Assembly: GCA_036172245.1 (NCBI GenBank)
Contig: JAYWIR010000016.1
Span: 558,001-622,000, forward strand
Source: Raillietiella orientalis
Taxonomy: Eukaryota
Reading direction: 5' to 3'
Length of the DNA stretch: 64,000 nucleotides
Shown here: positions 25,775-63,775 of the stretch, one piece after another
How positions within the stretch are numbered: the first letter of the stretch is position 1
How the letters are laid out: every line of letters begins with the position of its first letter
The notes under the pieces: generated by a model
Told to the model about the DNA's origin: nothing
Databases searched by the model: none
The model's input: only the letters and a program-made list of their open reading frames with translations
Translations under genes and position numbers: made by a program

Positions 25775-27590
25775 ATTGGATGGCCGTAGGGCTACGGCTG
25801 CTGCAAGAGGCACCTATTGTCGTGGGTTCGAATATCCGTAAAGGATCGACGCCACGAAGGCCGCACGGAGCTGAGAGGGAAGCTGCAAGAGACATCGAGT
25901 CGCGCGCGAAGAGGCACAGAAAAAAAACCCTTTTCCGTTGCCCATCGGGAGTGGGGGGGTCGCAACGGAGCGTTTCCAGTTACTCGGGAGGGCAGCACAA
26001 TCCAGCAACAGGTGCGGGAAATTCTCCCGTTTCCCACACCTGGCACAGTCTGAGGACTACATCCCCTCTTGTCCAACGGTGGACCCATGCGTTGCATGGG
26101 ATCGCCCTGTGCAGCGACTGCAATGCCGAGTCCTGCCATTCCAGGGGAAGCGTGGAGCTGTCCACAAACACCGGGGGTACTTCTCTCTCTTCAGGAAGAA
26201 CGTGCAGGAGTTGAACCCAGTGAGGAATCCCTTTGGGGAGAGCGGCAGGGGTGCATTCTTCAGCCAGCTGACCCGCCGTATAGTATCCCAGCTTCCCTCG
26301 CAGCTCCGTGAGGCCTTCGTGGGATCGTGGCGGCGAGAAGCTGCCCCGAAAGGCCACTCGAGTGATGAGGTCATCCCAATCGTCTGCTCCTTCGTGAGGA
26401 AGGCCGCATCTCTCCAGCAAGAGGAGCAAGTTGCCAACGTCCTCCGGAGGGTGCTGAGGACGCCAGGAAGAAATCCTCGATCCCTTCCCCCTCACATTTT
26501 TTAAGACTCAACTTTTGTGCGTATGTTTTTTTGTTTTTGTTCACCCCTTCCCCCACTCCTCCTGTGCGGACCTCAGCGGGGAGCTGCCCACGTGAAGCAG
26601 CGCCTCCGCGGCGGCATTTCCCTTCGCAGTGGTGATGTGCAGCCACTACGAAGAAGGGCATTTTTATATTTTATATGACTTTTTTACAACCAACGCCCCG
26701 GAGTGACCGGGCGAAAAAAAAGGATCGACGCCAGGACTGCATGGGTCGCGGGTTTTTCCCCCACGCGGGACGCTGATTGGCTCGCAAGGCTTCGGGTGAA
26801 GCACTGGAAAGTGTCCCCGGGCTTGGGGCCGTCGGAGACCGGGTGCGTCTCGTCGAGACGGACCAGAATCCGGAGTGGAGGATCCTCCGGGATCCACTCC
26901 TTTTCCCGGCTGTCGCGCCGGTTCCCCGGTTCGCGACTTCTTCATTTTGTCCTTAGGAATGAAACCCCCGGAGCGCGAAGCAAACGGCTCCAAGGTTTTA
27001 GGAACTCCGAAAGTCCCTTTCGCCGCGACAGGGGCGGCAGGAGCACCGGCGGCGGGATGCTGGGAGTGCAAAGTCATTTCGACAGCGCTCGCCACTCGGA
27101 AAGAGCCGTCGGCACACGGGGTGCGGATAACGACCAGAGGGGGAAGCGTGCCGTCTTCCCCTTTAGTTCGAGCCCAACGCCTAAATCTTGAGCGTCTGAC
27201 CGGCTCAAATTCGAACGAAGTGGGGCCATCTGAATCCAAAACTGGGAAGAGGAAAAAAAGTACCTCGGAAGCTCCGAGGGTCCCCAAACCCGCCACATCT
27301 CGCTTATGCGTGCTTTCTCTGCTGCAGCTGCTTAGCATTCCACGTGACGTTTGTGTGCAATCCAAAAGTAAATACCTTGGACAAAATGCAAAAGCGGTTT
27401 GAGGGAGGTCACGTGCTTTTTCGCAGTTTGGTAGCGATAGCTCGAGCAGGACTACTCAGGGACTCACCAGAAACCACCACGGAACACCTGGAAGGGACAC
27501 CCCACCCACCATCTAGTCAGCTGCTCTCCCCCACGGCAGGCACGTTCCCGCTCGTTGCGCCGGACCTCCAGGAACGGTGTCGGAAATCAA
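25775..27590 (+). mobile_element. tRNA-headed SINE-like repeat, interrupted by a LINE at 25855-26718
   Basis: The head has tggccgtaggg (A box-like) and gggttcgaat (B box). The body after 26733 aligns with the copies at 31420-31918, 40205-40975 and 59040-59570. Confidence 0.7.
25855..26718 (+). mobile_element. Tx1-like LINE with 5' inversion and 15-bp TSD
   Basis: TSD aaaggatcgacgcca at 25840-25854 and 26719-26733. 25855-26293 is antisense and 26289-26718 is sense relative to the copy at 62331-63693. Knuckle CARCGKRENFPHLLLDC; terminal hairpin plus A tail. Confidence 0.9.
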
Positions 27591-28229
27591 CCCAGGATGC
27601 TGCCAATTGGAAATCCGAGGACGGAGGCGCCCGAGTTGTTTTGTTTCTTGAGTGTGTGCACAGTTTGTTTTGAGAAGCTGACTCCGTCTCGAGTCGAGTC
27701 AGCTTCTCAAAATAAAGATGCTTACTTATTGAAGCAGCTCGCTTCGGGTCGTCATCCCCGGTTGAGGGTTCCTTCTTCCCAGCGTTTTCGGAATCGAGCG
27801 TAGAGTGTTCAGAGACACTTTTGAGTCACTCGAGTGCCTCTGCATGGGAGTAAAGTGTTGAAGCGCCGACGGCGCCTGAGTCCGTTTTGGTCGATAAAGC
27901 AAACCCGTGGATGAAGATTCAAATGAATCGTCGAGATGATCGACGTGTTATCGAATGCACAAAGGACGATGGAGTACTCTTAATGTTTCCATTTGTATTA
28001 ATTCATCCGTTCCCTTCTAAGGACACCGAATTTCGGAGCCATTCCGTTAACTAACACATTTGTGAGCTCGTCTCACTTGGCAACCGCGAAACAAATCTCA
28101 AGTACGGAATAAAAATGCTATTTCCTCCTTCCTCCGAAACGAAATACAGTCGTGCCTCGGTACTCGACGGTTTCGGAACTCGAAAAACCGTCGTATTCTG
28201 AAGAGCAAAAAATGTTTCGACACTCGGCG

Positions 28230-28800
28230 CATGCTCGGAACTCGACACCCCACTCATGATGGAACGAGTGAACGCTTTCGTCTCGTGGTAGCCTGCGAAC
28301 GATGCCGAACACTTCCGGATACTTCCCCCTTTTTTTGTGTGCTTTATGTGCATTTTAAGCGTTAATCGTGGATCCTGAAATGGCTAAAAATAATGCCACG
28401 AAACCTAGAAAGGAACTCGTTCGGTACTCGTCGGTTTCGGCACTCGTCGCGAGTTCCGGAACCAATTGCCGACGAGTACCGAGCTACAGTGAGAGGTCCA
28501 TCGCAACTTCCGGTCACGGTGGGACTTGCAATAGCTGTTTTTTGCCTTTTGCATTCTGTGTGTACTTGTGTACGCGTGAGAACTCTTTGAGATTTCGAGA
28601 TCAAGAAGATCTCATCCTGATGGCAGCAAACTGCACGCCACGATGCGCGACTACCACGTCTCATAATCTGCAAGTCACGATGAACGTGCAAGGTGTTCAT
28701 CGTGTCTTGCATATCGATGTCCTCGACACTTCCGACACACACCCAGAGTTCTGCCGAGATGCGGTTCGAGTTCCCCAAGTGCTGGGAAAGGGTGCAGTTG
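28230..28800 (-). mobile_element. Mariner transposase N-terminal (HTH/linker) remnant
   Basis: RISAELWVCVGSV..HRDLQIMRRGSRASW (~IA.ELGIS.GSV..IH.DL.MRKV.ARWVP), NEFLSR and HETK. Confidence 0.6.
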
Positions 28801-29394
28801 CTTGCTGGATTCCGTTTATCGCGGTGGTTTTTGACAATTGCCATGGCAACCGAGCAAGACGTTTATGATTCCAGGTTGATTCCCATCTTGCGTTCCTCTA
28901 AATGTCCCAATAAATGCACTTTTGCATGATGCAATTTCAACAAGAGTTTCTATTCGCATTTGCAGTTAACTGCTCACGATCTCATTCAAGATTGTGGATG
29001 CAACTAAATATATCCCAGGCTAAGCGTATCCCAGCAGAGAACTCACAGTTTCCAGGAGCCGCACAGTTTCCTAAAAATTGTACTGCTATTAAGAGGTTTC
29101 TCACAGGGGCAGATGGTGTTGGCGCGAGGCGTTCGAAATTTACGATCTTGATCTAATAATACGCACGGTAGCTACTATGAGATAGGTTGTCTGGGCAACC
29201 AGCTAGCTGTTATCCCCGAACAAAGCGGGCTGATTTCCTGGAAGTCCTTTTCGTGTCAAATGCTCAGGAATTACGCGGGGGTTCAGCGCCCGGTGCATGC
29301 ACCTTTTGGTCGGCATGTGTGACGACCAACGGTCAAGGCTTCCTCTTGGAATCCGTCGGGAGAATTTATCTGGATGCAAGCCTTACTCGGGTCA

Positions 29395-30450
29395 CCTTCT
29401 CATTCCCGACTTCCAGGTCACTAATTTAAAACCATGTGGAGTTAAAATAGTACCGACATGGGCCTATTCCAAACCAAAGGGATTACCTCCACGGGAGAGG
29501 AACCAGGAATGCGTTGGGGGAGAGGAGGACAGTAAGTGAATAAATAAATAGGCAATAGGGAGGACTGGCCTCACCGCACTCATCATAGCTCTCGAGTCGG
29601 ACGGAAGGCGGGTGGGAAGGGGGAGAGGGGGAACGGGGTGCGCTCAACGGCGTCCGATGGTTCTCCTTTGCACCCCACGTCCCGGATTGAGGCCGTTTAA
29701 GCGCCCCTCCGCACGCAAGCGTTGGCGATCCCAGGCGGCCTCCCGGGATGGCGGCCATTCCTTTTCTCCATTTTGCAGGTCGCCGCTGCTCGCGCCGCCC
29801 GTGCCACCAGGACACGGGATGGTCGGCGCTTCCTTCGGCTTTTCGGGCCGAAAACTTGCCCTAGCTCCCGCCGTCATCTCCGCACATCCATCCAGGAAAC
29901 GCCCTAGAGTGCAGCGATAAAAACGCATTTGCTGCCAATCAGCTGATAATCTCTCCACGCTGCTACCCCCACGCCGCGGGCCCCTCGCCCCCGTGAGATT
30001 TATGTTTCAGAACAGCGGCGAGCGAAAAAAAAAAACATATTCCTGCAAGGATGTCGTTCCTCCTTCATTCTCAGGGAAACCCGCAGTCAGCGCGACCTCA
30101 CGAAAATTTCACCTCATAGGGGTCCCTCCCAGCCCCAGTAGGTCCGAGCAGGGCAGACCAAACCGGAAGAACACCCAGCGCGATCCCGTGGAAGAAGGTG
30201 GCTTGCCAGGGCAGACAAAGGTGCGCGCGTATCGAATTGCGTCACAGCATCGAAGAGGTCGCATCTTCCGAGCCGATGTGACCAGTGATAAGAGAAGAAG
30301 ATGTTTCTTTTTTTTTTTTCGTTTGCTGCTAACGTGCGGCCCCAGGTGTGCACTGCACACACCGTGTGCCCACGGCGTTTTCGACTTCGATGATATCCAG
30401 AATGACAATCACTGCATCTCGTTCACCAAGCGCTAGACCATGGGGTTGTG
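29395..30450 (-). mobile_element. L1/Tx1-like LINE 3' remnant
   Basis: WGRTLAAN (~LS..GR.LV.N), IFFSYHWS (~F.FLW) and LSADWQQ/FLSLHSRA, matching LPLEWQDSALQSLHRA of the 62-63 kb copy; similar 3' UTR (ggagaggag..aataaataaata on the plus strand). Confidence 0.6.
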
Positions 30451-31419
30451 AGCCATGAATCGCCTCAAGCCGTCAGCATCTAACAGTGATGACATGGGAA
30501 GGAGCAACGAAAACTCCGCTCTTCGAAAATGCCTCCTGCGAAGCTTTTGAGTGCCTTCAACGAACGCAAACAAAAACCAGAAAAGAGTTGTCTCGGACAC
30601 CCTTCCTCACACGAGACGCGAAATTCGATTCAGGAGTTCAGAGAAAAAGAACCGATGCACGGTTGGCTTAGCGAATTTCTCAAATGATTTATTTTTGTAT
30701 GTTGATCATCGAAGACGGAGGAGCCCATCTTCGGATAAAGAGGGCCGTATGTGTATGCCTGCACGTCACTTGCAGATTGTTTAAGAAATATTCGAATTTC
30801 CCTTATAACCAGCTCGGTGTTCTCAATGGAGCTCAGCACGTGGCTGCAGCAACGGTTCTTGAGAGATTATGGCAATCTGGAAAGCTGCGCATATTAGCAG
30901 TTAGCAGAAATTCCAGCATTGATCATTTCCTCGTAATTATCCGATGCAGCTCGTGCTTCTCCGCACACCTCGGCATCCTCTTCTCGGACGTGTCTGTCCG
31001 TTCCACCCCTGCCTTCGCTCATGGGTGATTCGAACGATTGCCCTTGACTGTAAGGATTGCACTTCTTTTCCCCAAAGAGCACCACCGTCCAACTTGTAAA
31101 GAAGCGCCTCCTGACGAACGAGGAGTGTCCCCCCGCGCGCCTAAAGTCCAGGGGGTAAAATCGTCAGAGTGCGTCGGCGGTCACGTGATGCAGGAGGACC
31201 GAGGCATGACCCCCGAGGGGCTGGCCCCTCGGTCATGCCAGGTCATCGAATGGGGTTCGCGAGGTTCGGTTCTTACATCTTTAAGACCACCAGCACCATG
31301 GTGAAGACCAGGAAGTAGTGCAGGATTCGCGGGAGCTGTGTGGACACGGTGGTTTCTGGGAAAGCGTGCCCGGGTAGTCATGGAGAAGCAGCGAGCCGTC
31401 CAGGGAGGCTCCGGAGGAA

Positions 31420-31918
31420 GGAATCCGTTCCTTGGTAAGGGGAACGCCAGAAGGGAACCCTCTCTCCTTCGTTGTCTCCGGAGGGACCACCCGCGAGGGG
31501 ACCGCTCCTTGTTTACTCCCCTGAAGAGAACCCGGAAGGGACGCTTCCCGTTTTCTCTGAAAGGCGCTCCCCGAAGGGGACAGTGCGCTTCTTCATCACA
31601 CTCTGGCAGCTCCATGGGGAGCGATGGAGGGCGGTTCCATTTTACAACCGGAAGGGAGCCCCGGTGGGAACGGGCTCCTTAACGTCCTCCTGGAAGGACC
31701 CCGTAGAGTCAACTCACAACCTTGGCCGGTCAGCGGGGCATGCGGTTTCCGGCTTCCGCCAATGCCGTACCCGAAGCCAGCCAGCGTCATCTTGCGGAGG
31801 GGGCTCGAAACCCACGACCCACCTTCCGTTTCCCGGCTCGATACTCCACGTGGGGATTCGAACCCACGCGCTCAGTGTAGCTGCGGTGGCCACGTGGCCG
31901 CCAACTCGGGCCACAGGA
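31420..31918 (-). mobile_element. tRNA-headed SINE-like repeat (uninterrupted)
   Basis: The minus strand reads tggcccgagttgg (A box) ... gggttcgaatccc (B box), followed by the shared body. Confidence 0.8.
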
Positions 31919-32849
31919 TTTGTGGATTTGTGGGAGGTGATACGGTGGCTTCTAAAGAGAGTGTCCGAGTAGCCACAGCAACGCAGCCGCCCAGGTCTTT
32001 AACTTAGCCATCACGGTGGCATTTCTGACAAAAATTACGAAAATTCAAAATCATTGGAAATTCCTCCTTATAAAACGGCTCGTAGAATTTTCTCCAAGTT
32101 GGTACGGAGATACGTCTTCTTGGAGGACTCGTTGCAATCTGGAATCCTCTGTCCACCACTCTGACCGCGTCGTCCGACGATCTCTGCCTCCCATCCGCGT
32201 TTCCTTTTTCCCAGAACGTTCCGCCTATCTTGAAAATCAGACGTGTGCTGTAGAATCGAGCAGCCACGAGTGTGCCACGAGCGAGGAAGATTCAGAACCC
32301 AAGAGGCAAAGGGGTGGATGAGGTTCAACCCAGGTTGAGTGAGGATGCGCCCGCCTTTATTTCCAAAAGTGCCCTTCGGAGTGGCCTTCATCCCGCCCTT
32401 CGGTCGCCTGCATCATTCAATATTCATTGAATCGTTCAGTTTGCAACACGAACCGTAGGGACCAGGAATGGGAAAAATACATGCAGAGCAGGTTTCCAGG
32501 AAAAGTGTTTGGACAGCAACGGGAGAACTGCACGTAAAGAGAATCACGAGTTATCCTCGGAACGGCCAGGTCTTTTCGTAGAAATTTTCCTCCTTTTACG
32601 TATCCCGAAAGCCTGTATTCATTCCGATATAAAACTTTATGTTGGTCGTACGTTCGAGGAGCACAGAAACAGGTATGGGGGTAAGAACCGACCCTCGAAG
32701 ATCTAGAAAATGCAAACCGTGAGAACGTTGTTAATGGGTATTCATCTCGGTGCGTCCTCCGTTTTCACGTTGCTTTTCCGATGGCTCCCGAAGATGTGAT
32801 TTCGTTCAGGAAGGAAAATCAACCGGACTCGTAAAGTTCAACTGTTAGG

Positions 32850-33600
32850 TCAACTGATGGAAAGGCCACTTCCATTTGGCGTCTTCAGGACACGGGGCTC
32901 GGCTGGCGATGCATCCCCACGGCAGAATTCCGTGAGCGAGGTCGGTTGGATCCTGTCGCGTCGCAGCGATCCGAGAGACCACGAAAATTTAGGATGCTTT
33001 GGGGTCAGCCTTGCGATCGCACCTGTAAACACTCCTGGCTGAATCCATCCATTTTGAACTCACTGAGCTGCATTTGCGACTTCCGGGACAACGTGCTCGG
33101 GTGAAGAACCGGATGAGCTTTTTTCTAGCGAGTCGGAAAAAGTTCACTTGCGCTCATTTGCGTCGGCTCTTGCTCCACAATCATCTGCACCGCCGGAGAG
33201 AATCAGTAACCAGTTCATTCGATGAGGGTAGGTCCACTTGTTTCAATCCTCGCAGACGGAGGGGGGAGGGAGAGGGAGGATTGCAGCTACCTGGGGGGGG
33301 ACGAAAAATTACAGCAAAAAAGCAAAAAAGCAAAGCAGCTGAGCAAAAAATTCTTCCATAGGAGTAATCGTGAAGATCTCCCGGTATGGAATTCACCTGA
33401 GATCAGCTGGTGGCCGAGCTCTCCTCGGTCTGCATCCAAGGACGAACGGAAATGCAATTAGAGCTCCAGCCGAGGGAGGAAGCAACGCAGCTCTAGGAGC
33501 TAAAACTAAAAGAGAAGGAAGAGTGAAATCGTCATTCCAGCTCCCTACTTCATCCCGACCCAAGAAAGTTACCACGGTAACGCAGAGAGCTGTTTCGTGG
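32850..33600 (+). mobile_element. Decayed RLE element, 3' part
   Basis: LHNHL (~RHN.I), KSKKAK and GGRALLGLHPRTN (~VG.LG.W.P.N). Confidence 0.35.
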
Positions 33601-35239: not shown

Positions 35240-35420
35240 TTCGTCGCGTCTCGCATTGCTCGTCGAATGACGGTTCGTGAGCTTTTCGTAGATGCTCCCG
35301 TAAGCATCCCGGAAACCGGCACGAAACGGCAGAAAGACCAAAGGATGGATGGCCTCGGGCACCAGGCGGCAGAGGGTGAAATGTCCAACGTCAGAAAGAT
35401 TTCAAACGTCAAAGGTCACG
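35240..35420 (+). mobile_element. Internally deleted mariner remnant
   Basis: RRMTVRELFVDAPVSI is joined to PETGTKRQ (~RR.TVREL..IS / PETKRQS). Confidence 0.55.
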
Positions 35421-40204: not shown

Positions 40205-40975
40205 AATTCAAGGTGCTCCGAAGCACCGCGCAGGATGATGGAATTCCTTTCTTTTCTGTCTTCGCAGTTCTTCGACACCGTTCCAGGCCACCTGATGGTG
40301 GGTAATTCTTCAAGATAGGGGGTATCCCGGGAGGGGTCCGTCCTATAAATCCAGTTCGGAGTTCGTTCCTCTCGCGCATGGGGGAATGGAGATCACCTCT
40401 AGCCTGGTTGTCTCCGAAGGGGCATCCCGAAGGGAATCCTCCTTCCTTATTCTTTCCGGAAAACCCCCTGGGGGGTCCGCCCCGTCCTTTCTTCTCTGAA
40501 GGGAACCGAAAAGGATCCGCCCCTGGAATTTCTCCTCCGGAGGGATTCCATGCAAGGGATCCGCTACTGTTTTCACTCTTTTGAAGAGAACCCAGAAGGG
40601 ATGTTTCCGAAATTCAGAAGGACGCAGCTTCCTCGAAGGGATCGGCTCGCTTCTCTGCACTCTCTGGAGAGGTGGTGGCGACACACCTACTCCATCAGTA
40701 CCACGCGGAGGGTCCGCTCCTTCACAACCAGAGGGGGAACTCCCCACTCCTCGATTCCTGGAAGGACCCGGAGGTCGACTCCCATTTGTCCCGGCCCTCA
40801 TCGGAGGCATCCGGTTTGAACCGCTACCAGTGCCGCCCCTAATGAATGGAGGCCGGCCAGCGTCATGTTGTGGGGTGAACTCGGAACCCACGACGCACTG
40901 CGTCGATTCCTTTCGGAGCATTCGAACCCACGACGCATGGTGCCACGGGCGGAGACCACCGTGAGCACACGGCCT
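40205..40975 (-). mobile_element. tRNA-headed SINE-like repeat, most complete copy
   Basis: Minus strand B box gggttcgaat is followed by the empty target aaaggaatcgacgca. The body aligns with the other copies; a ggtgct/agcacc hairpin lies at 40212-40227. Confidence 0.8.
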
Positions 40976-40979
40976 CCTA

Positions 40980-41133
40980 CCCGGGTGCGCCCTATGAATC
41001 CAGGAAGGACTCGGAGTCCGTTCCTCTCGCGCATGGGGAGGAATTCCCGGAAATGGAGATCACCTCCACCCTGGTTGTCTCCGAAGGGGAATCCAGAAGG
41101 GAATCCTCCTGCCTTATTCTCTCCGGAGTACCT
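40980..41133 (-). repeat. Additional internal fragment of the same SINE-like family
   Basis: Aligns with about 40330-40465 and with the reverse complement of about 53020-53165. Confidence 0.8.
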
Positions 41134-43249: not shown

Positions 43250-46200
43250 CACGGGGTCTGTCTTGAGGAGGAATCATTTGCGCCCCTTTAATCGGGATGC
43301 CAAAACGCAGGAAAGCACGATTTGCTGGAGCATCATCAATATTCCCATAGTTCTTGCCGGTTGACAGGAAGCTGGCCGCCCATTAGCTTTGGCCATGTCG
43401 AAGGTTCCCCCGTTTTCACCTTCTCCAAGAGCTTCCTGGTGAGGTCCGTTGCGAGTCTCTGATGACGGTGTCTCATGCGGTCCATTCCCAGTTGAAGAAC
43501 TCGAAATAGGCCACTGGGGCATGAAGGGAATAGATCTTCTCTGGGAGAGAAGCATGACACAGAAATACACAAAACCGTTAGAGCGGAGAGGCACTTCACT
43601 CTCGAGTTGCAGCTGGTATCAGGGAGCACACGTACCAGGGGAACAGTTCATCTGAACGATCCACTTTGAGACCCCGGATCCCAGTCCATCGTGTTGCGAT
43701 CCGGGAATGTTTGCAAGGAACGTTTCGGCAATGCCGTCGTGGGTCCTCGCCATGGAAGATCACCAGCGTGAGTTCAGAACGAGAACTGTGAAGCAATGAA
43801 AAATGGGATGCTTTCCCTTCTCCCGAGATGACTGCACGAGTCCTTTGGCACGGAAGAAAAAGTTGATGCTCCCCCGATTTCGCTCCGTCAGCAAGGAAGT
43901 TTATTCGGCTCGCCGTCGGCTGAGAGTCTAAAGTGTACTTCGGTTGTACACGGCGAGTAGAAGTTCGGCGGGGAGGGATTTTACGAGCAGAGTCCGAGCA
44001 ATTTTTTTTTTTTTTTTACAGAAGTTGAACTTTGGTCCACGCCTGGTACGCTACATTACTCTGCGGGTCGATGCCGAGCTCGGCGATCTGTTGTTTGGGG
44101 CCTGCATCCGCCCGGAGGACATCCTCCCTCACGTTTCATCTAGAGACGGTTTAGCTTACATTATAGAAGCTGCAACCATTCTATCCGACTGTTCCCTTTC
44201 AATCCAGGGTAATTTGCGGCACGTGAGTGAATGACAAATATCCGAAAATAGATCACGCTGGGAATAATTGGGATTCTACGTGGTCCTCATCCTGAATTAT
44301 TGATGAGGCTAAGATGTTAGGAAAACGCGGGCAAATCCTTCGCACCTGAGTGGAAACTTTGACGGACGCCACTGACCGGCGTGTTCGGCTCAGATGATGG
44401 AGAACATCCAGAAGCAAAGAGCTTTGAGTGGTGTCCAATTAGCTCTCGAACCGGAAGCTTCTCGAAAACAGCTGCAAATGCCACGGAGTGAATCCCTGAG
44501 CATTTTTCGAATGATGGCAATCAGGGATGCTAAATGCCTATAATGACTGTTTCAGAAGAACCGTGTGCTCGAGGCTTCAGCTCTCTGAGGGAGGACTGAC
44601 CACGCTCCAGCCCTGCATCCGATTTCACCTGAGATAATGATTATTATTTTGGGTGCCCTAAGCGTGACTTTCCTTCTCGCTTGCCTTTCGATCTTTGTTG
44701 CCTTCTGGTTATGCCGGAGGCGGTATCTCAGAGGCTCGTTTGAGATCCACCGCAGTTGCCATCTGCAAAAAGCACGAAGGCGTACGTAAGAAGGGGTTCA
44801 CTTAGGTGTAGTGTGCCCGATCGGCAGAATGGAAATAGGGAAGCACCTGTTTGGGGAATCCCATGTTGTGTGTGCCCAAGTGACCCGGTGCACTCAGGAA
44901 TCGCATGAGTGGCTTCAGACGTTCCATCAGGGACTTTAGACGAACTTTTTCCGATTACCTTGCTGCATTTTATTGCATCAAATTTGCACGGTTGTCTCGA
45001 AGATCTAGATGATGAACACATCCGTGTTGATCAAACTTCATCCTTTTACATCCATTCATGATCATTTTTCACTCTGCATTGTTTCTATTTCAAAGGTTGG
45101 TCATCGGGGTCTCCCTGTAGGGCCACCCGGAGACAAGCGATTTCATTCGGGTGTTTTGCTGGGAGAGAAACGACGGTTGCCAACCGGCAGATTGCTGGGT
45201 GACCTCGTAGCAGGAGCGACGAAACTGGCGAGAGAGTGGGACTCGGGCACGCTGTCTGACGCGGAGACACCCAGAGAGCGCCCCGAAGCGCTGCTCCGTC
45301 GGGAAGAACATCTGGACATTCCGCCGCAGCGGCGGCATCGCTGGACGTGGATGAGAAGCGTCCCTGCCGACTGAGAGCCAGCGGCGGAGAAATGGGATCT
45401 CTCGCGCGCCTGCTGATGGAACGCGGTGACCCTCGTGGAAGCGCGTGGACACGCCTCGCAGCTGCTTCACCTCGACCCGAGGACATCCCGGAAGGACTTC
45501 TGCCGAACTGCTGTTCGCAGGACGGGCCTTCTTCGCCTGCTACGCCGAACCTGCGTCGCGTCCGGAGGATCGTGACCTCCCGGAGAACACTGAGGAGGGG
45601 GGAGTCAGCAGGGAAGGAGGACGGCACGCTTCAACTCCGCAGTGACGGCGAATGTCCTTTCAAGGACGCCACCTGCGTCGCACTCAGGTTTCGGCAGACG
45701 CGTTGAGCGTGACCGATGACCCCTGTCCCTTCCTCCCCTTTTATTTATTTATTTATTTATTGTCTCCTCTCCTACACCTTTCCTGTCCTTCTGTGTGGTC
45801 GGTCGGCGCGAGTCGGCGTTTTGTTTTTCCTCGCTTTTTCTCCTCCCCTTGGATTTTTTATAGACTGTTGGATTTACCGATCCACACTGCCTGTTTATTT
45901 TTCCTTTTTTTGGAGGAAGGAAAACAAACGCCCCGACGTAATCGGGTGAAAATGATGAATATGTCCGTGCTGGAGAATCTTCATCCTTTACATCCAATCT
46001 ATGATCATTTTTCAAGTTGCATTCTTTCTGTTTCAGCGTGGGGTTGACGAGGAGCCGTTCTTCCACACCAGAATGAAAGCGGGTTATCCCGTTGAATCAA
46101 CTCAGCTCCATCCTTGAACTGTCGGAAAGCGGGGTGATTTCAGATCGGTCATCGGGCTTTCCCACAGTAGGGCCATCTCCGAGTCAGGCGATTTTACTCG

Positions 46201-47149: not shown

Positions 47150-49550
47150 CTTAATAGAGTCTTTAGCGGGAGTTGAGCCCTACTAAAAAGGACTCGGCTC
47201 ATGAAATTCGACAGCTACAGCGATCCCTACAACTCCGATAAATATGCGCGCGATGTGGCAAGCACTTGGCAGGTGCCCAAGTCGAGCCATATTGTTCCCC
47301 AGGCAGAAGACGTTTCATGCTGAGGGAACCAGCCTCATTGCTTGTAGCTTCTATTTCGTGCCCGTGTCTTAGCAACCCTTCTGGGTTTGCAGCTCCTGAT
47401 TTATTGCATCAAGCTTTTTCATTAGGTTCCGGATTTTCACTCAGAAATACGTGCGGCAACTTGCAAGTTATCAACATGGCAATCTCAACATGCTGGGATG
47501 TGGATGCTGATCAGACGTTCATGGAGACTTCGAAAACCACACGCAGAAGAATGTGCAAACAGCAAAGAAATCATGAAGGATGCACACGAGGTTGCACCGC
47601 AGGAAGCCAGGAGCGATAACAGCCTAAGGACATTTCTCATTTCGCTTTCTCTTCCTCATTCGCATTCAGCTTCCCCTTCCTTCCCAAGGACTCGAGAACT
47701 TGGCTCCTTCCTCGTTTCCTGCTTCCAGAAACTCACCCGAAACCCATCAGCAAAATCCCGTCTCCAATACGATCTTCCTTTCCGCCAGCACGTCTGCTGG
47801 GAGCGTCTCCCTGACGCCGCGGCCTGGCTCGCGGCGGACGGCGGGAGACTGCGGGGGAGATCGCAGACGCACGATCGAGCATCCCGCTGCAGCCACATCC
47901 CAGCCGCTCACCTCCGTGGTGCGCATGCCACGCGGAGTCCCGGAGTTCCGTCTTCCCCGCAGCGCGCAGGCAGGTTGCTTCTCTCCCGACGGGAGGGAGG
48001 GTTGAACCGGGCGGAACACCCGCTCTTTCGACGTCTTCAGCCTCCGGGATGCGGCATCCAGCTGCAGCCCGTCTTGAACACGCGGTACTCGTCGCCGAGC
48101 AACAGAACTCTTTCCGCCTGAGTGCTCACGCCGTCGCCTCGCCTCTGCCGGCAGTCTCATCTTCCTGGCCCGCCTCGAAACCTCCCACGGAAACACCTCA
48201 GCGCACCGTCGAACTCGCGCGTTCGTGCCTTTTTCTCGCCCGCGTACGGAGGAGGGCAGCTTTCGTCTTCCTGGAGGTCGTTTTCGAGGAGCTTCCACGC
48301 CCCTCAGTTCTTCTCAGTCTCTGGGACACGCCCGGACTTCGGATTCGGAAGCGATTCCGACCCGCGCGCACGGAAGAGCCCCACGGTGGAAGCGGCGGCG
48401 TCGACGACTCCCTCGACCTGGAGTCCGTCCGCAGCGCCGGGCGAGCGTCGTCGTCTCTCACGCGGACGCGCACCAATGAAAGATGCCGCGCCTCCGAATC
48501 GGCGTCGGTGGACGACCTATCGACCCGTCTGCAAAGATCCGCATCTTGGGAGCGGACGCTCCTCGTTACGGCCCCGGCCGTCCTTTCGCCGCAAGAGGGG
48601 ACGGCCCGACGAGCGAGGCATTCACGTTGCTCGTCCTCTCTTGGTCTCGTACGACCACACGCGGCCGCTCCGGGCCCCCTTCTTCCTCCCCTTCCCCCCT
48701 CACCCTCCTTCCTCGTTCGAAACGCTGCGGAGAAACGTCCTCTTGCCCTGGAGGGGGCGAACACTGGATGCGGTGGATCTTCGCTCGAGGGGCGGTCGGT
48801 CCAACATCCCATAGCGAGACGGGGAGAGTCGTCTGCTCGCGTCCTCGGTGCCACCTGCAAGCACCCCGGATGTGCACGACCGGGGAAGCACCTCGGTGGC
48901 AGCGGAGCGTGGCGCGCCCGCTTCGGGGCGAGCACTGGAAACCCGAGGCGAGCACACGGCGCGGTGCCGAGGGAGCCAAAGCCAGACCCTTCCGAGCGAA
49001 AGCGGGCCACTTCGGAAGAGAAACGGTCCGAAGGCTGGGCCACCGACTGGTGCAGGAGACATCCTGAGGACCACAATCCCGGTGTGGAGGAGGGCTGGGC
49101 GGTGCGGGGTGACTCCAAGGTGGAAACGGCAGGCGGTCCCCGCTGCCGCGGACCGCATGCTCCACAAACATGCGCTGCAGTCAGCGAGAGAGAGAATTAA
49201 GAGTCGCCGTGCAAGACAGGTCGAATTGGGGGGGGGGGGGGGGGGAATTCGCTTCCAGGTGGACGCCGCAAGCGCTGGGTTCCTCCTGTTTCCCATGTGC
49301 TGCTGGCTACTGGTCGCCAGCGAACCGGTTCTGCTGGCGGCTCCAAGACAGCTTTGGTGGGGCTGTTTTCTCATGTACCTCATGCGTTCAGAAGGAGGAT
49401 GGGGTGAAAGCGTGGGATCCAAGCGAGAACGCTGATCTCACGGTGTTCATTCCGTTCGTGTGATGCAGGGTGGTGTTTAAGGGGATGTTGGGAAGGAAAG
49501 AGTCTCGAAGGCACGATTGGTCAGCTCGAGGTGTGAGGATGTAGGAGGCA
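47150..49550 (+). mobile_element. Decayed Utopia/NeSL-like element, RT to C-terminus (GC-rich)
   Basis: SPGRRRFMLRE (~SP.QKGFM..E), HIPAAHLRG, PQRAGRLLLSRREGGLN, SFRL, SLWDTPG, RGRTL (~QGK) and GVKAWDPSEN (~LGAWDP.NE). Confidence 0.65.
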
Positions 49551-53009: not shown

Positions 53010-53510
53010 TGCCTGGGGTCCTCCGGAGAGAATAAGGAAGGAGGATTCTCTTCTGGATTCCCCTTCGGAGATAACCAGGGTGGAGGTGATCTCAGTGTCC
53101 GGGGATCCCTCCCCAGGACTGAGAGGAATGGACTCCGAGTCCTTCCTGGATTCATAGAACAAACCCCTCCCGGGGTACCCTCTATCTTGAAGAATTACCC
53201 ACCCTCGGGCGGCGTGGAACCGTGTCGAAGAGCTGCGAAGACAGAAAAGAAGGATTTCCATCATTGCACGACCGGAGGGGGAACTCCCCACTCCTTGATT
53301 CTTGGAAGGACCCGAAGATTGACTCTCATTGTTCCGGTCTTTATCGGGGACATCCGGTTTGAAGCGCTACAGGTGCCACGCCCGAATGTTTTGTCCAACC
53401 AGGAGAAACTCGGAACCCAACGACGCAGTGGTGTCAGTTTCTGCCAGAGTATTCGATCCCGCGACGCATGGTACCACGCGCGGAAGCCTTAACCACAAAG
53501 CCTCCGATGT
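53010..53510. mobile_element. Rearranged SINE-like copy (3' body on +, tRNA head on -)
   Basis: 53010-53263 is the reverse complement of about 40235-40475, whereas 53264-53500 is direct to about 40720-40960. The head (minus strand) reads gtggttaagg..gggatcgaat. Confidence 0.8.
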
Positions 53511-53859
53511 GGGCGATCTGACTCCTAAGAGGATCCCTCAACGCGGTTCTTGTCCCGTCCGCGAACTTAGGGCGACCGGTGCGGAGCCCAGCCTCCCATT
53601 CCCTCTGCTCCACAGAGCATCTCATTTCCCTCTCTTCCTTTCCTGAACCTACTCGACTGCCTCAAACTCCCCCTGACCCGTCGACTCAACTTGCTCAGAA
53701 GCGCAGATGAGGAGGCGGCACAATCGGACATCAGTTTCATCCGTGAGCAGCGCCGTGGAGATAACGACGCGATGCTGCTGCAGCCTCCGTATCTTGACCA
53801 ACCTCGACCTCGGGGAAGCTTGGCAAAGCATCGCTGAAAGAGCTGAAGGAGAAATACAT

Positions 53860-56760: not shown

Positions 56761-56879
56761 TTCTACGCTCTTCCCCAACGCCTCTTCCTGGAACCCAGGG
56801 ATGAAGCCAGAGAAGAGAAGGACTGTTCTACAAGGGCGTGCAAACTGTTGTCAGCACCCTATCTAAGTTTCCTCTGGAG

Positions 56880-57135
56880 CGTCTTCTTTGGTAGCCGAGC
56901 GCAGCTGTGCATGTGTGTTCCCACCGAGCTGTTCAACGAACTTCCTCCAGGCATCGCGACTTCCCAGACGGAGTGGTGCGTCCGACCACGGACAGCGAAC
57001 TGGATGCCGCTGCTTGGCCTTGCGGTCCCGGATCCAAGGTGCTTCCGGAACGCCTTTTCCGTCTGCGAACATTCGCAGTTTTGGCGGTGTACGAGCAGTC
57101 ACTTCCTTCGAGACGATGAAACGGACTAATGGTTT
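56880..57135 (+). mobile_element. Short RLE element fragment
   Basis: LQASRL, then TSSHFLRDD (~ASNHFLRDG). Confidence 0.4.
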
Positions 57136-57479
57136 TGTCCCTAACAACGTGCTCTTCGAAACGAAAAGCACTGGCAATTACGAATTGATTTTTTTTCCTC
57201 CCCTCGTCTTCCTCGGAGGAAATGCCGTGATGCCAGCATTGCAGCTGCTAATCATATTTACGACTATGGATTTCATCTCTTTCCTCCTTATCAAAAGCTC
57301 CACTGTTCTGAGACTTTCAGAACAAGAGTAACCAGTGATTGCATTTGAGGGAAGCTCAGATCTTTGCTAACTTTCGGGGCGCTCTCTATTCGTTAGGAGA
57401 TTCTTTTTCTCCCTTCTTCAAGATGAAGCTGCCGTGGTTGGAATGTCATAGCAAGCCAAGCTATTCGCAACGACGGATG

Positions 57480-58800
57480 CTCGGAATTTGTTCACCTACG
57501 TCCCTTTGGCACTACTTTGTGATGATTCCCGGGCACTTGCTTTACCCCTGCACCGCGTCTCATGGCTGCACTCGCGGGGTACAGCCGGGGAAGTCCGAAA
57601 TCCAGAGACCACGGCTGCGCTCTGGTTGCCTCCTGATATGAATGGTTTGCTCCAAAATGCACGTGGCTTCTGCGCACTGGATGCTGTCCCTTGGACCCTC
57701 ACATGTTTGTCGCGCACCCCCGTGTGGGGAGGGGCTGCACGCCTGCATGACGCCTCTGCCCTCTTCGTGCGAAGCGTGCACCTCCTCCTGCCTCGGCGAC
57801 GGCAGCTCTCTTCTAGCTCCGTGGCACAGTCACGGCACCAAACGGCGCCGAAGAAGGACGGGATGGCAAAGCCGTCGGATGCTTCCTGCGATGAACCTCG
57901 GAAGGAAGAAGAAAGTTCGATGTTTTCGCACGTTCATTCTTGTGCTTCCCTGTGCATCTCTCTTCTTGCAGCTTCGGCTGGTGCGGTGCAGCCTGATCCT
58001 CGCGAGAGCCACAGCAGGAGTCTGAACGTTCGGAACAGTCCACGTGGCATGTGCACTCTGCGAGCAGTCAGCGGAAGCGCTGACGGCAACTTCTTCGCAG
58101 CTGGTTTCCCCGCTCTCCATCCCGGAAGCTGTCTGTTGACAAGAAACAGCTCCGGAGAGACTGACATGCTACTGTCAACAGACAAACCATGTCGCGATTC
58201 GAAGCGACTCCAGCCAGAGACGAAGCACTCTCCATCGTCGAAGGCAGGCGAAGATTCTTAGGAATTCATCAGCAGGTAAGGAGGGAATCGGACGAAAAGG
58301 ATGACGGAGGCGTGCCAAAATAGGGCAGGAATCGAGAGAAACCAAACTCATCGCAAATCTTTGAAAGATTGCCGGATGAGAGCCATCAAGTGTATCGGTC
58401 TTCATGGGAGTGTGGTCCACCGATCCAAAAAGCCCGCCAGAAGCGGAGTGGACTGCACCACACAAGCACCTACTCTTCGCATTTGTTTCCTTCTCAGAGA
58501 AGAAGAATCCATACTTTTTGAGGAGGAAGACCAGATGGCCCTGCCATGGAAAACTTGAAGAGGAGCTCGCAGGTACCTTCACAAGATGAGGAAGGCTTCG
58601 GGAGACCACCTGTGACTACTTCCTCCCCAAGATTCTCCAGCACGTGGGAATTTTCTTTCTTCCTTCTCCCGACCTTCTCCAAAGGGGAGCTCGTGGCACG
58701 CGCTCTGGCTTAGCGGCAGCTGCCGTCGGACTACCCGGAATTACAGGGGGAAGGCTGATTTCGGACGTTGCTTGTCTTTTTTTCCTTTCGACGATAAGCC
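57480..58800 (+). mobile_element. Decayed RLE element, post-RT region to C-terminus
   Basis: RVSWLHSRG, WGGAARLHD..VHLLL, CQ..LKDC, LHGSVVHRSKK (~RHNAIV.RLKK), LRICFLLREEESIL..LPWK and RLISDV. Confidence 0.6.
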
Positions 58801-59039
58801 CTTCGTTTTTCTGGGCGCCAGCAACACGGCGCTGCCATTTCCAAAGCGGCCTCATCTCCTCCGCAGCCGAGAGGAAGCGGAAGTAGAGGAGCTATCGGTT
58901 TTCCCAGTCCTGAACCAGAACTTCAGCACGCGCCATGCATCAACGGGAGGACCACCGTAGGCGAGAGCGGCGGAACAAAACAGCACGCCGCACATGACTT
59001 TTGACGACCCCATTGAGAATCCGGCTGAAGTCTTTTTCT

Positions 59040-59570
59040 GGGAGAGCCCAACACTTGGCACGTCCACGTGGGGAGATCCCTACGTGGAGGATCAACGCCA
59101 AGAAATGGGTTTCGAGGCCCTCATGCAGGAGGACGCCGTCTGGCCTGTAGGCTTCGGGTGCGGCACCGGTGGAAGCAGCTAGATTGCAATTTGACCCTCC
59201 GGGGTCCTTCCAGGAATCTAGGAGCCCTCATGGTTCCCCTCCGGTTGTGAAAATGGAGCCGTTCCTTCCCTAAGGAGGGACCCTCTATCGAGTGCCATGG
59301 AGCTGGTTGATATCCTCTTCGGGGAGTTGCCTCTTCAGAGTGTCAGAAGCGCACTGATCCTTTCCGTGAGCGACCCTTCAGCGAAATTCGGAAGCGCCCC
59401 TTCGGAATTCTCTTCAGAGGTTCCCTTGCTGGTTCCCTCCGGAGAAGAAATTCCAAGAGCGGATCCGTTACGAGTTTCTTTCGGAGAAAAAGCGAGGAGG
59501 AGCGACTCCCTTCCGGAAGTTCCCCTGGAGGGAGGGAGGAGGAATAGGTTCCCTTCGGGGTTCCCTGCCA
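59040..59570 (+). mobile_element. SINE-like repeat copy (uninterrupted, decayed head)
   Basis: The body aligns with the reverse complement of 31420-31870 and 40430-40830; the empty target variant aggatcaacgcca lies near 59088-59100. Confidence 0.75.
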
Positions 59571-60249
59571 AGCGTAAGAGGCGGAAACGACTTCTAAGAG
59601 GAGGTGGGCAAGAAAAAGAGAACGAGAGAGGAGGCGACTGCGGTCTTGCTCAAAGCGGCGTCAAGGTTCCGATGCTCCATCTCAGTCATGCAGGGAGCAG
59701 TGTCCTCCAGGAACTTCGAACCTCCAGCTGAAGAACTGCAAGAGCAAAGCAAGGAAGAAACCAACCATCGTCCCGTTCTCGACATTCGTGGAGTACGCAA
59801 GCTCGCGCGAGATCGAGGAAGGGGGGAGAGGAGGAGGGGGGAGACATAGATCAAGATTTACTTCTCCGCTGATCGAAACAGGCCCGCCCTTCCCGTTTCC
59901 CAGCCGAAGCCACGCCCTTGACCTATCCCCTCGCATCTACCCGAGATGTGCTCTTCTGCCCTAGCAACTCCCGCAAACACATCCGTATTAGTCTCTTAGG
60001 TACTGAGCAAGGCATGTGAAAGGATCGTTTCCAGGACTTGGGGGAAGAAGCTATTTGACGAAGAGGAAAAAGAAAGCCAGCAGCTCTCATGACCGGCGGG
60101 AGGTAGAAGATGCGAAAACTGTGGAGCTCAGTTATTAGAACAAACAAATGGAAAGATAAGCTGAGCCTCTGCAGGCTCGTAGAGTAATCGCAGGGAGGCG
60201 TTTCCCGGCAGCTGAAGAATTGGCTACTGGACCTGAAGTCAACGCGAGG

Positions 60250-60780
60250 CGGCACCTCACTCTCTTGTGCTTCCGAGCCCAACTAATGGGCGATGAAGTC
60301 TATGGAGACAAGTGCTTCCATAAGGCAACCGCGAACAAGAGGTAGGGGATTATGGGGCGTAATTAATGGCTGCAATTTGGGGAAAATCAGGAAGCTGGAG
60401 AGACGGTCTGTTTGGAACCCTTCTCAAGAGTTGGTGGGGGTTCTGTGAAACCCAATAAATAGTTTGCGCGGGCGGAATGCTGACGATGTCGGACAATGGA
60501 TCGATACGTCGACAACCAAACAGCGCCCTTCGAGATCCAGACGGAATCCTCATCATCCATCTGGGTAAGATCTACATTCGAAAAGAAAAATAAATACGAT
60601 GAATTCATTGCTTGCAAATGGCAAGATATTTACTGGAATGGAAACTGGGTCCTTCCCGTTTCCATGGAAAGTTTCAGAGGGCTCTTGAAAGGACTCTGCG
60701 AAAGGCTACACAGCAAACCATTCCATTAATCGGATGAGTAGGCACAGATAGTACTCGAAAGAATTGCAAATACAAGAGAA
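60250..60780 (+). mobile_element. RLE endonuclease remnant of a different subtype (Hero/CRE-like)
   Basis: VINGC (~H.LNGC), LRDPDGILI and FEKKNKYDEF..VLPVSMESFRGL (~ERK..KY..V.PVE.G.RG). Confidence 0.4.
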
Positions 60781-61239
60781 AGAAGATTTGCATTCCTGCA
60801 GAGCTGTCATAAGAGAATATGATGAAGATCTAAGAAGGAGGAGAAGAAAATCCACTACGTGAGGAGCGAAAAGAAAATTGATATTCGCCAATTAGCAGAT
60901 TAATCAAATTGCCAAGGCTTGAATTGATTTCTCCCAACACGGGAAAAGCGGGAGGCTGCAGTCTAGGAAGGAACTCGAGACTCTGAGGCTGCAAACATCA
61001 ACTTGCAGTACGGAAAGCAGCAGCCTTTTTTCATCCTCATCCTAAGAGATATCTCGAACGAGTTTCAAAAAGATCTTCAGGAGTAGGGAAGCGTCTTTTC
61101 AAACACGAATTCGAAGGCATCGGATGCAATGGGCTACAGAAGATCGCAGACTAAATGTGCAGCTTGTGCGATCGTGGGTCTGGATTAATGGGATTCCAAG
61201 GTGAGAAATAAGGGATCGTTGTAATCAACCCCACGACCA

Positions 61240-61800
61240 AGCTCTTCCCTGCTGTCAAGACGGCGATCTCCACAAGGACAAAAATTCCCAACGAGGAGAC
61301 TCGTCTCCCTTTGTGAGATCAGGCAATGTCTTCTGTACCATCATCTCCGTACTCACTGAAACATTCGGAACAGCATGCATCAGGGAGGGAATTCAGGAAT
61401 TTCTCAGCAGGTGCGAATGGAAACCTGTGACATTTTCGAAACGCTGCCAGCTCTTCTTTCGGGAACCATTTCTAACTGGTTCCATGTCCCTTCTGGTCCA
61501 TGCTTCGCTATACCTGCTCTTTTTAAGAGCCAGGAATGTAACCTCAGTCCTCGGACGCTTTTTCGAGCCATCACGATTAATCAATCGTGATGGCTCCCTG
61601 GAGGTGTGCAATACGACTCGAGGACACCGCAACACTCGAGGTGGCGTGCCATGGATTGGGTGCTTGCGAAATGTTCTTTTAAGCGGGACAGATCCTCACC
61701 AACATTCACTGCTGTCAGTGGGAATATCAAAGTCACTGACTCCAGTTCAGAGGAAGCACAAAGAGAAGGAAAAGCGCGCTATGGAATTTTTCTGCAAGTC
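61240..61800 (+). mobile_element. Decayed non-LTR reverse transcriptase, N-terminal half
   Basis: RLVSL/GNVFCTII, IQEFLSRC (~QKGF..G) and PWIGCLRNVLLS..PH..SLLSVGI (~WLD..NAF.SV.H..L..G). Confidence 0.45.
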
Positions 61801-61874
61801 TGATGACATGACCCCTTGCCACGACACAGCCACTCGCCACTTGCGTTACTTCGCAAAACTACCGTATCGTCACA

Positions 61875-63775
61875 CCATGTCTCCCCTTTCTCCTTTTCCG
61901 GAGGGACCCACGGAAGGAGCTTCTCCTAATTTCTTCTCCGGAGGGAACCCCGAAAGGACTCTCCCTGTTACTGCTCTGAAGAAAACCCCGAAGGGACATT
62001 TCCGAATTCCTATGAGGGACGTTCCCCGAAGGGAGCATCGCGTTTCACTCAGGAGAGGCAACCCCGAGGGGGGTATCCAACTTCATGTTGGAAGGTCTCC
62101 CTCCGAGGGGACGGTTTTATTTTCACAACGGAGGAGAACCTCAAAGAGAACCGACTCCTTGATCCCTGGAAGGACCCCGGAGGGCCCACTTCCAATCCAG
62201 GGCAGTCAACGGGGACATCCGGTTTCTGACTTCCACCAGTGCCGCACCTGAAGCTTGAAGTCCAAGAAGCATCATCCTCTAGGAGGGGAATCGAAACTTG
62301 CGACACACCCTTTTTTCAGCTTCATCCTTTCTTTTCGCCCGGCCACGCCGGAGCGTTTGTTGCAAAAAAATATTTACCAAAAAAACAGTGACATCAAAAA
62401 TGTCCTTCTTTTTAGTGGGTACACATCACCACTGCGAAGGGAAATGCCGCCGCGGAGGAGCTGCTTCACGTGGGCAGCTCCCCGCTGAGGTCCGCACAGG
62501 AGGATTGGGGAAGGGGTAAACAAAAACAAAAAAACACACGCACAAAAGTTGAGTCTTAAAAAATGTGAGGGGGAAGGGATCGAGGATTTCTTCCTGGTGT
62601 CCTCAGCACCCTCCGGAGGACGTTGGCAACTTGCTCCTCTTGCTGGAGAGATGCGGCCTTCCTCACGAAGGTGCAGACGATTGGGACGACCTCATCACTC
62701 GAGTGGCCTTTCGAAGCAGCTTCTCGCCGCCACGATCCCACGAAGGCCGCACGGAGCTGCGAGGGAAGCTGCAGGAGACATCGAGTCGCGCGCGAAGAGG
62801 CGCAGAAAAAAACCTCTTTTCCGTTGCCCATCGGGAGTGGAGGGGTCGCAACGGAGCGTTTCCAGTTACTCGGGAGGGCAGCACAATCCAGCAACAGGTG
62901 CGGGAAGGTTTCCTGTTTCCCGCACCCGGCACAGTCTGAGGACTACATCCCCTCTTTTCCAACGGTGGACCCGTGCGTTGCTGGGATCGCCCTGTGCAGC
63001 GACTGCAATGCCGAGTCCTGCCATTCCAGGGGAAGCGTGGAGCTGTCCACAAACACCGGGGGTACTTCTGTCTCTTCAGGAAGAACGTGCAGGAGTTGCA
63101 CCAGTGAGGGGTTGTCTTGCTCTCCCTTTGGGGAGAGCGGCAGGGATGCATGCTCCAGCCAGTTGACGCGCCTTCCAGCATCCCAGCTGCTTCTTTTTTC
63201 CCACGATCTCGCAGAATACTTCCTATGTCGGAACTCCATCTCCATTTTGTTGGATTTTGATGAATCTAGGTGCAAGTGGATTGCTCAGTGCTCAGGTGGT
63301 CTTCCGTGCACAGTCCATGATTTCCTGCAACGAGCAGCGAGCGCAATTCGAGAATCACAGGCGTCGCGATGGCTCAGGTCCCACGCCTGAACTGTTTCCT
63401 GTCTTCAGGAGGCACAGTTGGCGGGCGGCAGGAAATCCATCTGTTCTCTTGGACCAAAGCAATCATTTGCCGGTAGCCGTACCGGGGCAGCTCTCGGTGG
63501 CCATGCACGAGGAGCGTACCCAGTCCCTCGGCGCCGACATGCTCGCTTGGAAAGAAGTCTGGCTGGAGCGCACCAGCGGGTGATCCAGAACTTCACCGCT
63601 AGGGCTAATCTTCTACACTGGAGCATCCGCTCCATCCTCTCCAGAGCCGAGTCCGGCGTCCCGACATGGAGCACACAAACCCTTCAAACGATAGGCGTCG
63701 AACCTTTACGGGTATTCGAACCCGCAACGCTTGGTACCATGAGCGGAGAGAGCAGCCACGAGGCAGCCAACGCGC
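61875..63775 (-). mobile_element. tRNA-headed SINE-like repeat, interrupted by a LINE at 62331-63693
   Basis: The minus-strand head ..gcgggttcgaatacccgtaaaggttcgacgcc ends at 63694. The body resumes at 62330 (aaaggatgaagc..gcttcaggtgcggcactggtggaag..ggggtccttccagg). Confidence 0.8.
62331..63693 (-). mobile_element. Tx1-like LINE, 5'-truncated (~1.36 kb)
   Basis: ERMERML..FW, LPSEHVGAEGLG (~LP..GGLG), WQDSALQSLHRAIP and CAGCGKQETFPHLLLDC (zf-RVT-type); the 3' end reads aaacgctccggcgtggccgggcgaaaa. Confidence 0.85.

Follow-up and report, generated by a model that had tools for sequence, protein, structure and literature searches.

Do two copies of a long interspersed nuclear element (LINE), both lying at the same nucleotide of another repeat, reflect a preference of the element for that site? 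The question is raised by a stretch of 64,000 nucleotides from Raillietiella orientalis (assembly GCA_036172245.1, contig JAYWIR010000016.1, positions 558,001 to 622,000 of the forward strand), which is referred to here as the window and in which coordinates are counted from the first letter. Two copies of one LINE family, at 25855-26718 and 62331-63693, were found in it, each embedded in a repeat that resembles a short interspersed nuclear element (SINE). An earlier interpretation made from the letters only (the sequence-only reading) had proposed that these are independent insertions by a LINE which uses a SINE as its target. Based on the analysis described below, a probability of roughly 0.6 is given to the reading that an L1/Tx1-type element without long terminal repeats (non-LTR) was inserted twice independently by target-primed reverse transcription, endonuclease recognition of the site sequence being the most likely cause.

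LINE copy 1 (25855-26718, 0.86 kb, with an inversion) was resolved by BLAST into two segments. The inverted 5' segment occupies 25855..26288, with its sense on the minus strand, and has its counterpart at approximately 62741-63188 of copy 2; it represents LINE positions ~410-857 counted from the 3' end. The colinear 3' segment, on the plus strand at 26289..26718 (430 bp), ends in GGGCGAAAAA. Copy 1 is bracketed by a perfect target site duplication (TSD), AAAGGATCGACGCCA, the 5' unit of which lies at 25840..25854 and the 3' unit at 26719..26733, both on the plus strand; the direct repeat is identical at 15/15 positions, in agreement with what had been read from the letters. Microhomology was observed at both joints, with three nucleotides (CCA) at the TSD and CAGCT at 26289-26293, and 31-34 nt of the LINE are duplicated across both arms (inverted-repeat arms 25847-25885 and 26289-26327). 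Copy 1 therewith carries the hallmarks of twin priming: an inverted segment, microhomology at both joints and a small duplication.

LINE copy 2 (62331..63693, minus strand, 1363 bp) is colinear and 5'-truncated, and ends in GGGCGAAAAG. Its 5' TSD, AAAGGTTCGACGCC, was located at 63694..63707 and a putative, decayed 3' TSD, AAAGGATGAAGCTG, at 62317..62330, both on the minus strand. Comparison of 63707->63694 with 62330->62317 gave 7/14 identical positions without gaps and, in a hand alignment with one gap, 10/13. The TSD of this copy had been called diverged, which is correct, but at 7/14 it is weaker than that description implied. The decay may be due to two CpGs that the site contains and to a greater age of copy 2. 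The support given to copy 2 by a second copy is limited to 62331-63188, while 63189-63693 was assigned by contiguity and bears no resemblance to repeat sequence. The possibility that 63693->63560 is remaining repeat sequence, which would shift the copy-2 junction, was considered and rejected, as the alignments were no better than those of shuffled sequences: the 134 nt past the 5' junction showed no similarity to the repeat downstream of the target, and the observed score was reached by 49 to 273 of 300 shuffles.

When the window was compared with itself by BLAST, 25852-26293 aligned with 62738-63188 (+/+, 91.2%) and 26289-26725 with 62771-62324 (+/-, 91.5%). With gaps excluded, the two LINE copies are identical at 398/429 and 410/437 positions, or ~93%. 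The substitutions between them comprise 34 transitions and 24 transversions with no excess at the third codon position (14/7/12), a pattern resembling neutral decay since the time of insertion. The 3' terminus of each copy is GGGCGAAAA[A/G], a short A-run with no long poly(A). The hallmarks of LINE integration are thus present in the 15/15 TSD, the A-run at the 3' end and the differing 5' ends (0.86 kb inverted versus 1.36 kb colinear). The 5' flanks, A-rich 3' ends and coordinates given in the sequence-only reading all match the sequence, and its description of two different 5' structures agrees with the self-BLAST.

The repeat that harbours the LINE is represented by six copies in the window, two of them filled by the LINE and four empty (A, B, S5 and S6). 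A profile was constructed from the four empty copies and used in an nhmmer search of the window. The 5' part of host repeat 1, a head with the B-box GGGTTCGAAT at 25824-25833, lies on the plus strand at 25774..25839 (profile positions 12-93 = 25774-25853, E=7.5e-4), and its 3' continuation, on the same strand, at 26734..26808 (profile 78-156 = 26719-26808, E=5e-3). Host repeat 2 is on the minus strand, with its head, which also includes a B-box, at 63708..63774 (profile 10-90 = 63774-63695, E=6e-5) and its body at 61893..62316 (profile 88-495 = 62311-61893, E=8e-58). On the profile, the two flanks of each insertion meet or overlap within positions 78-93, the overlap in host 1 being the TSD. 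The flanks were recovered in register, and the earlier statement that each LINE copy begins just after the B-box and that the repeat body resumes behind it is borne out.

The empty copies are A (40485..40987, minus strand), with the free target AAAGGAATCGACGCA at 40913->40899; B (31424..31915, minus strand), with its free target at ~31849->31835; S5 (59043..59495, plus strand), with the free target GGAGGATCAACGCCA at 59086-59100; and S6 (53036..53518, minus strand), with its free target at ~53445->53429. The empty sites in A and S5 had been pointed out before and are indeed present; those in B and S6 are two further ones. The B-box is exactly GGTTCGAA in 4/6 repeat copies, reads GGATCGAA in S6 and is (partly) deleted in S5. 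The target sequence downstream of the B-box is CCGTAAAGGATCGACGCC. A length of ~500 bp is common to the repeat copies, of which the body consists of degenerate units of ~35-40 bp; neither a common 3' end nor TSDs of the repeat itself could be defined.

As to the origin of this repeat, a T-arm-like hairpin is found in the head of some copies. ARAGORN, applied to the repeat heads, recovered 0/6 at default settings and a tRNA-Arg-like fold in 2/6 at 85% stringency (-ps85), while in the two heads compared with Rfam no tRNA family appeared at E<=10. The description as a SINE-like repeat with a B-box is safe. The name tRNA-derived SINE, under which the repeat had been introduced, is only plausible and weakly supported. 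Two suspected links between repeat and LINE were rejected. The extra 16 nt after the target in copy B were considered as a tiny LINE remnant, but the same segment occurs in S5 and in the flank of host 2 and is therefore a subfamily feature; the 3' tail of the repeat, considered as a LINE derivative, has no significant similarity to the LINE. Copy A is flanked on both sides (40246-40446 and 40976-41132) by reverse-complement pieces of the repeat body, so that long local inverted arms are present.

Both window copies of the LINE family (2/2) occupy the same nucleotide of the repeat in the same orientation. Over the last 30 nt before the insertion the hosts agree at 28/30 positions, and over the 50 nt upstream at 22/50; for the 20 nt after the B-box core the count is 18/20 (P=0.0036 for an assumed background identity of 0.6). 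The four empty copies show more differences at the target positions than the hosts do. Because both TSDs measure 14-15 bp, the second-strand cut was also made at the same place. The window contains 322 TTTA/TAAA sites; the repeat, 2.6 kb in total, has 6 of them, including the 2 that are occupied. Under a null model of uniform choice among the 322 sites, the probability is 0.6% for one insertion at either occupied site and 1.9e-5 for both, and 2.9e-4 for both insertions anywhere in the repeat. It is plausible that the LINE uses the repeat as a preferred landing site, as two cases suggest. The proposal of a SINE as the LINE target stands to the extent that 2/2 insertions share a nucleotide beside a 28/30 island, and is weakened by the sample of n=2 and by the fact that TTT^A is also a generic site.

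The coding potential of the LINE was investigated using homology searches and structure prediction. A frame on the minus strand at 62559..63284, which contains one in-frame TAG and ends with ...PPHIF* in both copies, was taken as the C-terminus of open reading frame (ORF) 2. Within it lies the CCHC motif CAGCGKQETFPHLLLDC (62883-62933, minus strand), with the spacing C-x2-C-x7-H-x4-C and ...W behind it; both LINE copies have the motif. The TAG, at 62943-62945, is located one codon before SSDC...CCHC, and the same TAG is found in copy 1 (25855-26288). A second open frame (…HRWKRGDVVLRLC…) runs over the TAG/CCHC stretch in both LINE copies. Perhaps the source element was defective from the start, or the true frame shifts at the TAG.

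The only Pfam family recorded for the 242-aa read-through of this frame was zf-RVT (E=0.09, 13.9 bits; cut-off 27.5). Word-based searches with the read-through returned no match among longer or similar-length proteins, and PDB sequences gave chance matches alone (E>1). Of the Atlas neighbours of the uninterrupted 128-aa ORF, 11/30 were in a cluster set with 25% zf-RVT members, which is a weak lead; the AlphaFold model of this ORF had a mean pLDDT of 45.9 and an unusable fold. Exact searches with a LINE-derived 25-mer and with a target 30-mer or 26-mer gave 0 matches in metagenome, genome and viral contig sets. For the element as a whole we infer an L1/Tx1-type affiliation, and Tx1-like is used as a label, not as an observation. 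Only two features, the TSD length and the twin priming, point to the apurinic/apyrimidinic endonuclease (APE) type.

Two separate integration events are the only comfortable reading of the filled sites, because the 5' structures differ and divergence between the host flanks greatly exceeds that between the LINE copies. Between the hosts, identity is 60% in the 5' part (83 aligned columns) and 46% in the 3' part (323 columns), versus ~93% for the LINE; had a composite been duplicated, its flanks should match one another as well as its LINE does. Host 2 resembles B and S5 (69%) more than it does host 1, and the hosts are not mutual nearest neighbours among the six copies. The independence claimed in the sequence-only reading is supported. 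It is very unlikely that one ancestral insertion was later duplicated, by segmental duplication or gene conversion, and rearranged. Such a history would accommodate the in-frame TAG and the ambiguous frame upstream of the CCHC motif, which both copies share, as well as the nearly identical 30 nt before the LINE, but the TAG is equally derivable from the source element, identity outside the 30-nt island falls to 44-60% on the 5' side and 46% on the 3' side, and the rearrangement would have to recreate by chance an inversion in copy 1 that is joined to an intact TSD by microhomology. An even smaller chance is given to the idea that no insertion took place and that the filled and empty forms are a long and a short version of the same composite element, the latter having arisen by deletion between 15-bp direct repeats. 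A direct repeat does bracket the extra segment of copy 1, and a single repeat copy is found in the empty forms; against this, the extra segments combine a shared A-run 3' end with unlike 5' ends, the mark of LINE integration, they carry the ORF2-like CCHC tail, and a related family occurs elsewhere without the repeat.

Two explanations which concern the shared position rather than the number of events are given more weight. An ordinary L1-like LINE of low specificity, needing TTT^A only, might have arrived twice at a hot spot or by coincidence in an abundant, GC-rich repeat, and this is regarded as the foremost of the alternatives though itself rather improbable. It would agree with the nick deduced from the insertions (5'-CCTTT^ACGG-3'), with the low observed/expected ratio of TpA (0.46) and the mere 6 TTTA/TAAA sites in 2.6 kb of repeat, and with a related family, here called family 2, that has no association with the repeat; in addition, very many stretches of DNA were scanned, and rare coincidences surface in such a scan. 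What it does not explain well are the null probabilities of 0.6% for one hit and 2.9e-4 for both in the repeat, the top-strand cut which, with TSDs of 14-15 bp, also fell at the same place, and the 28/30 island, which is unexpected if TTTA alone matters. Less probable by about half is a targeting by position, in which RNA polymerase III (Pol III) factors bound to the B-box would tether the integration machinery of the LINE, with insertion following at a fixed short distance from the box. Both insertions are indeed situated 5 nt past an intact GGGTTCGAATA box and in the orientation of the box, and the available part of PMC3159450 offers a precedent in TRE5-A of Dictyostelium, which is reported to target the TFIIIC/TFIIIB complex ~50 bp upstream of tRNA genes. 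Copies A and B, however, have the exact GGTTCGAA box and yet are empty, which favours recognition of sequence over tethering. The identity between the hosts moreover reaches 20 nt past the box (18/20), the binding of Pol III factors by old repeat copies is a supposition, and reuse of the exact nucleotide is tighter than is known for TRE elements.

Two insertions guided by recognition of the site sequence are preferred to these alternatives, and several observations weigh against that preference. There are two cases only. The TTT^A nick is a generic preference of unspecific L1-type endonucleases, and the repeat, being GC-rich, has very few TTTA/TAAA sites. All main copies of family 2 (3/3) lie outside the SINE-like repeat. 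Host 1 is recognisable as repeat for only ~90 nt after the LINE, at the E value of 5e-3 given above. The decay of the copy-2 TSD amounts to ~4 events where ~1 would be expected from the divergence of the LINE (P ~0.015), and because it is so much more decayed than this divergence predicts, the 3' junction of copy 2 is less certain than that of copy 1. Reverse transcriptase (RT) and endonuclease sequences are absent from both LINE copies, so that class and clade are assigned indirectly; RT is not expected in them, because both are 5'-truncated within the last ~1.4 kb. The zf-RVT score is under the Pfam cut-off, and an exhaustive phmmer search of 1.84 billion representatives yielded 0 matches at E<=0.001.

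Initiation of integration by the preferred route would involve an endonuclease, probably of the APE class, which nicks the bottom strand at 5'-CCTTT^ACGG-3', five bases after the B-box; judged from the anatomy of the insertions, this nick would be the complement of CCGT^AAAGG. The resulting TTT-3'OH would pair with the A-run at the 3' end of the RNA and prime the cDNA, and the cut in the top strand would follow ...GACGCCA, at a distance of 15 nt downstream. In copy 1, the top-strand end ...CGACGCCA may have paired with a partly complementary stretch of the RNA (6/8 bases) and primed a second cDNA, which would have led to the inversion. The endonuclease would presumably be of the APE class and, like those of Tx1 and R1 elements, truly sequence-specific, and the repeat might serve as a harmless landing pad for the LINE. 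A more far-reaching proposal, namely an undescribed lineage of sequence-specific LINEs whose endonuclease reads ~20-30 bp at the boundary of the tRNA-like head and the SINE body, is offered as a speculation that is probably too strong. Taken by themselves, the undepleted CpG, the TpA ratio of 0.46 and the want of any recognisable domain in 64 kb would hint at a repeat-rich, non-animal protist genome, and a coccidian was guessed from base composition and PMC4337577; in such a genome, the targeting of transposons in the manner of Tx1 would reach beyond Metazoa.

Family 2, a much more diverged relative of the LINE, was detected by nhmmer with copy 2 as the query (E=5e-14 to 1e-9). Its members are located at 17873-18783 (minus strand), 45161-45957 (plus strand) and 19232-20037 (plus strand), with a further piece at 20008-20153 (minus strand). 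The 3' end is ...CCGGGTGAAAAT, and the CCHC motif is not kept. The copies at 18783 and 45161 have the same 5' end, GGGAGAGAAACGA..., which fits a non-autonomous or uniformly truncated subfamily. Two copies form a tail-out inverted pair (17844-18071 versus 20037-19808, 88% identical) with ~36 nt in common past the GAAAAT end, after which the flanks diverge; the pair may be an inverted duplication, or the true 3' end may be longer. The copy at 45161-45957 lies between 84-bp direct repeats (45009-45092 and 45952-46035, 81%), the downstream unit of which starts at the LINE 3' end and the upstream unit 68 nt before the LINE 5' end. These repeats are too diverged for a fresh TSD, and the element may therefore sit inside another repeat. 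Marginal nhmmer matches to LINE copy 2 were also obtained upstream of S5, on the plus strand at 57968-58159 (E=0.01) and 58523-58691 (E=0.08); they could represent chance similarity or what is left of a very old LINE.

The window as a whole, with a GC content of 0.46 to 0.58, resembles gene-poor eukaryotic DNA. Based on observed/expected ratios, CpG is not depleted (0.90) and TpA is strongly depleted (0.46), while GA/TC and AA/TT are overrepresented at 1.22-1.29. No tRNA genes were identified in it by ARAGORN at default settings, and no Rfam families at the gathering score. The curated Pfam cut-off was reached by 0/608 ORFs of at least 60 aa, and no RVT family was among the matches; the matches to UNC80_N and DUF6600 were rejected as sub-threshold, their E of ~0.008 being the chance level for 291 queries. 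Ranking of the window by codon periodicity did not reveal a clear exon, and a protein search with the 461-aa ORF at 47815-49197 was without match. A direct duplication of 589 bp (5524-6112 and 16496-17084, 99.8% identity, 11 kb apart) may be far younger than all else in the window, or an assembly artefact. Two inverted-repeat pairs with short spacers, at 1020-1324 / 2496-2800 (305 bp, 99.7%) and 11722-11978 / 12169-12546 (118-bp arms at 96.6% plus ~130 bp at 77%), look like foldback structures or structures of the miniature inverted-repeat transposable element type.

In the anatomy of its insertions the LINE resembles mammalian L1, which prefers to nick at TTTT/A and is characterised by TSDs of ~15 bp, a 3' A-run, and 5' ends that are truncated or, with microhomology, inverted. 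Each of these structural features is found here, the inversion showing microhomology plus a small duplication at the joint. Mammalian L1, however, is not site-specific and has a long poly(A) tail, whereas the present LINE has an A-run of only 4-5 nt and both of its copies occupy a single site in a single repeat.

Landing of a LINE in another repeat is an established pattern. According to the accessible portion of PMC4640811, the APE-type target-specific LINEs belong to the Tx1 and R1 clades, and Keno is absent outside animals. As far as the excerpted text of PMC4494074 extends, Tx1L of Xenopus laevis sits in the piggyBac-type DNA transposon Tx1D, Keno in U2, Kibi and Koshi in microsatellites, and the crocodilian families Tx1-Mar, Tx1-9_AMi, Tx1-8_Crp and Tx1-4_AMi in Mariner, Harbinger and LTR elements. 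The present LINE is comparable to Tx1L in being aimed, as proposed, at a specific site in another interspersed repeat; the target of Tx1L is a DNA transposon, whereas here it is a SINE-like retroposon and the LINE is known without RT or APE. The crocodilian families likewise land in another transposable element, but no SINE target is named in the excerpted text, and many copies and an RT phylogeny are available for them, compared with two copies and no RT in this case. In zebrafish, Mutsu is inserted in 5S, Dewa in the tRNA-Leu spacer and Keno in U2 (PMC3706591, in the part available). These are multicopy sequences of the Pol III/snRNA type, and the site described here is similarly at the 3' edge of a tRNA-like head; they are, however, functional multicopy genes or arrays, while the repeat consists of dispersed, decayed copies. 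TRE5-A and TRE3 are non-LTR elements whose integration is guided by TFIIIC/TFIIIB to fixed distances from Pol III genes, but the distance of ~50 bp upstream of the tRNA gene given for TRE5-A in the available part of PMC3159450 differs from the insertion observed here, which lies 5 nt beyond the B-box and was twice made at one and the same nucleotide.

No description of a LINE specific for a SINE was found in the literature; Repbase, Dfam and the supplements of PMC4494074 were outside the scope of this search and may record one. The terms "Tx1", "preferentially inserted" and "SINE" occurred together in PMC4494074 only. The interest of target-specific LINEs lies in how a retrotransposon endonuclease becomes tuned to one DNA site, and they are studied for targeted gene insertion. 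If the reading favoured here is true, the SINE would be a new target class beside DNA transposons, LTR elements, microsatellites and small-RNA genes, and an ecological oddity, given that SINEs normally live off LINEs. Under the more far-reaching proposal of an undescribed lineage, the usual relation, in which the SINE parasitises the LINE, would be reversed, with a LINE using SINE copies as safe landing pads.

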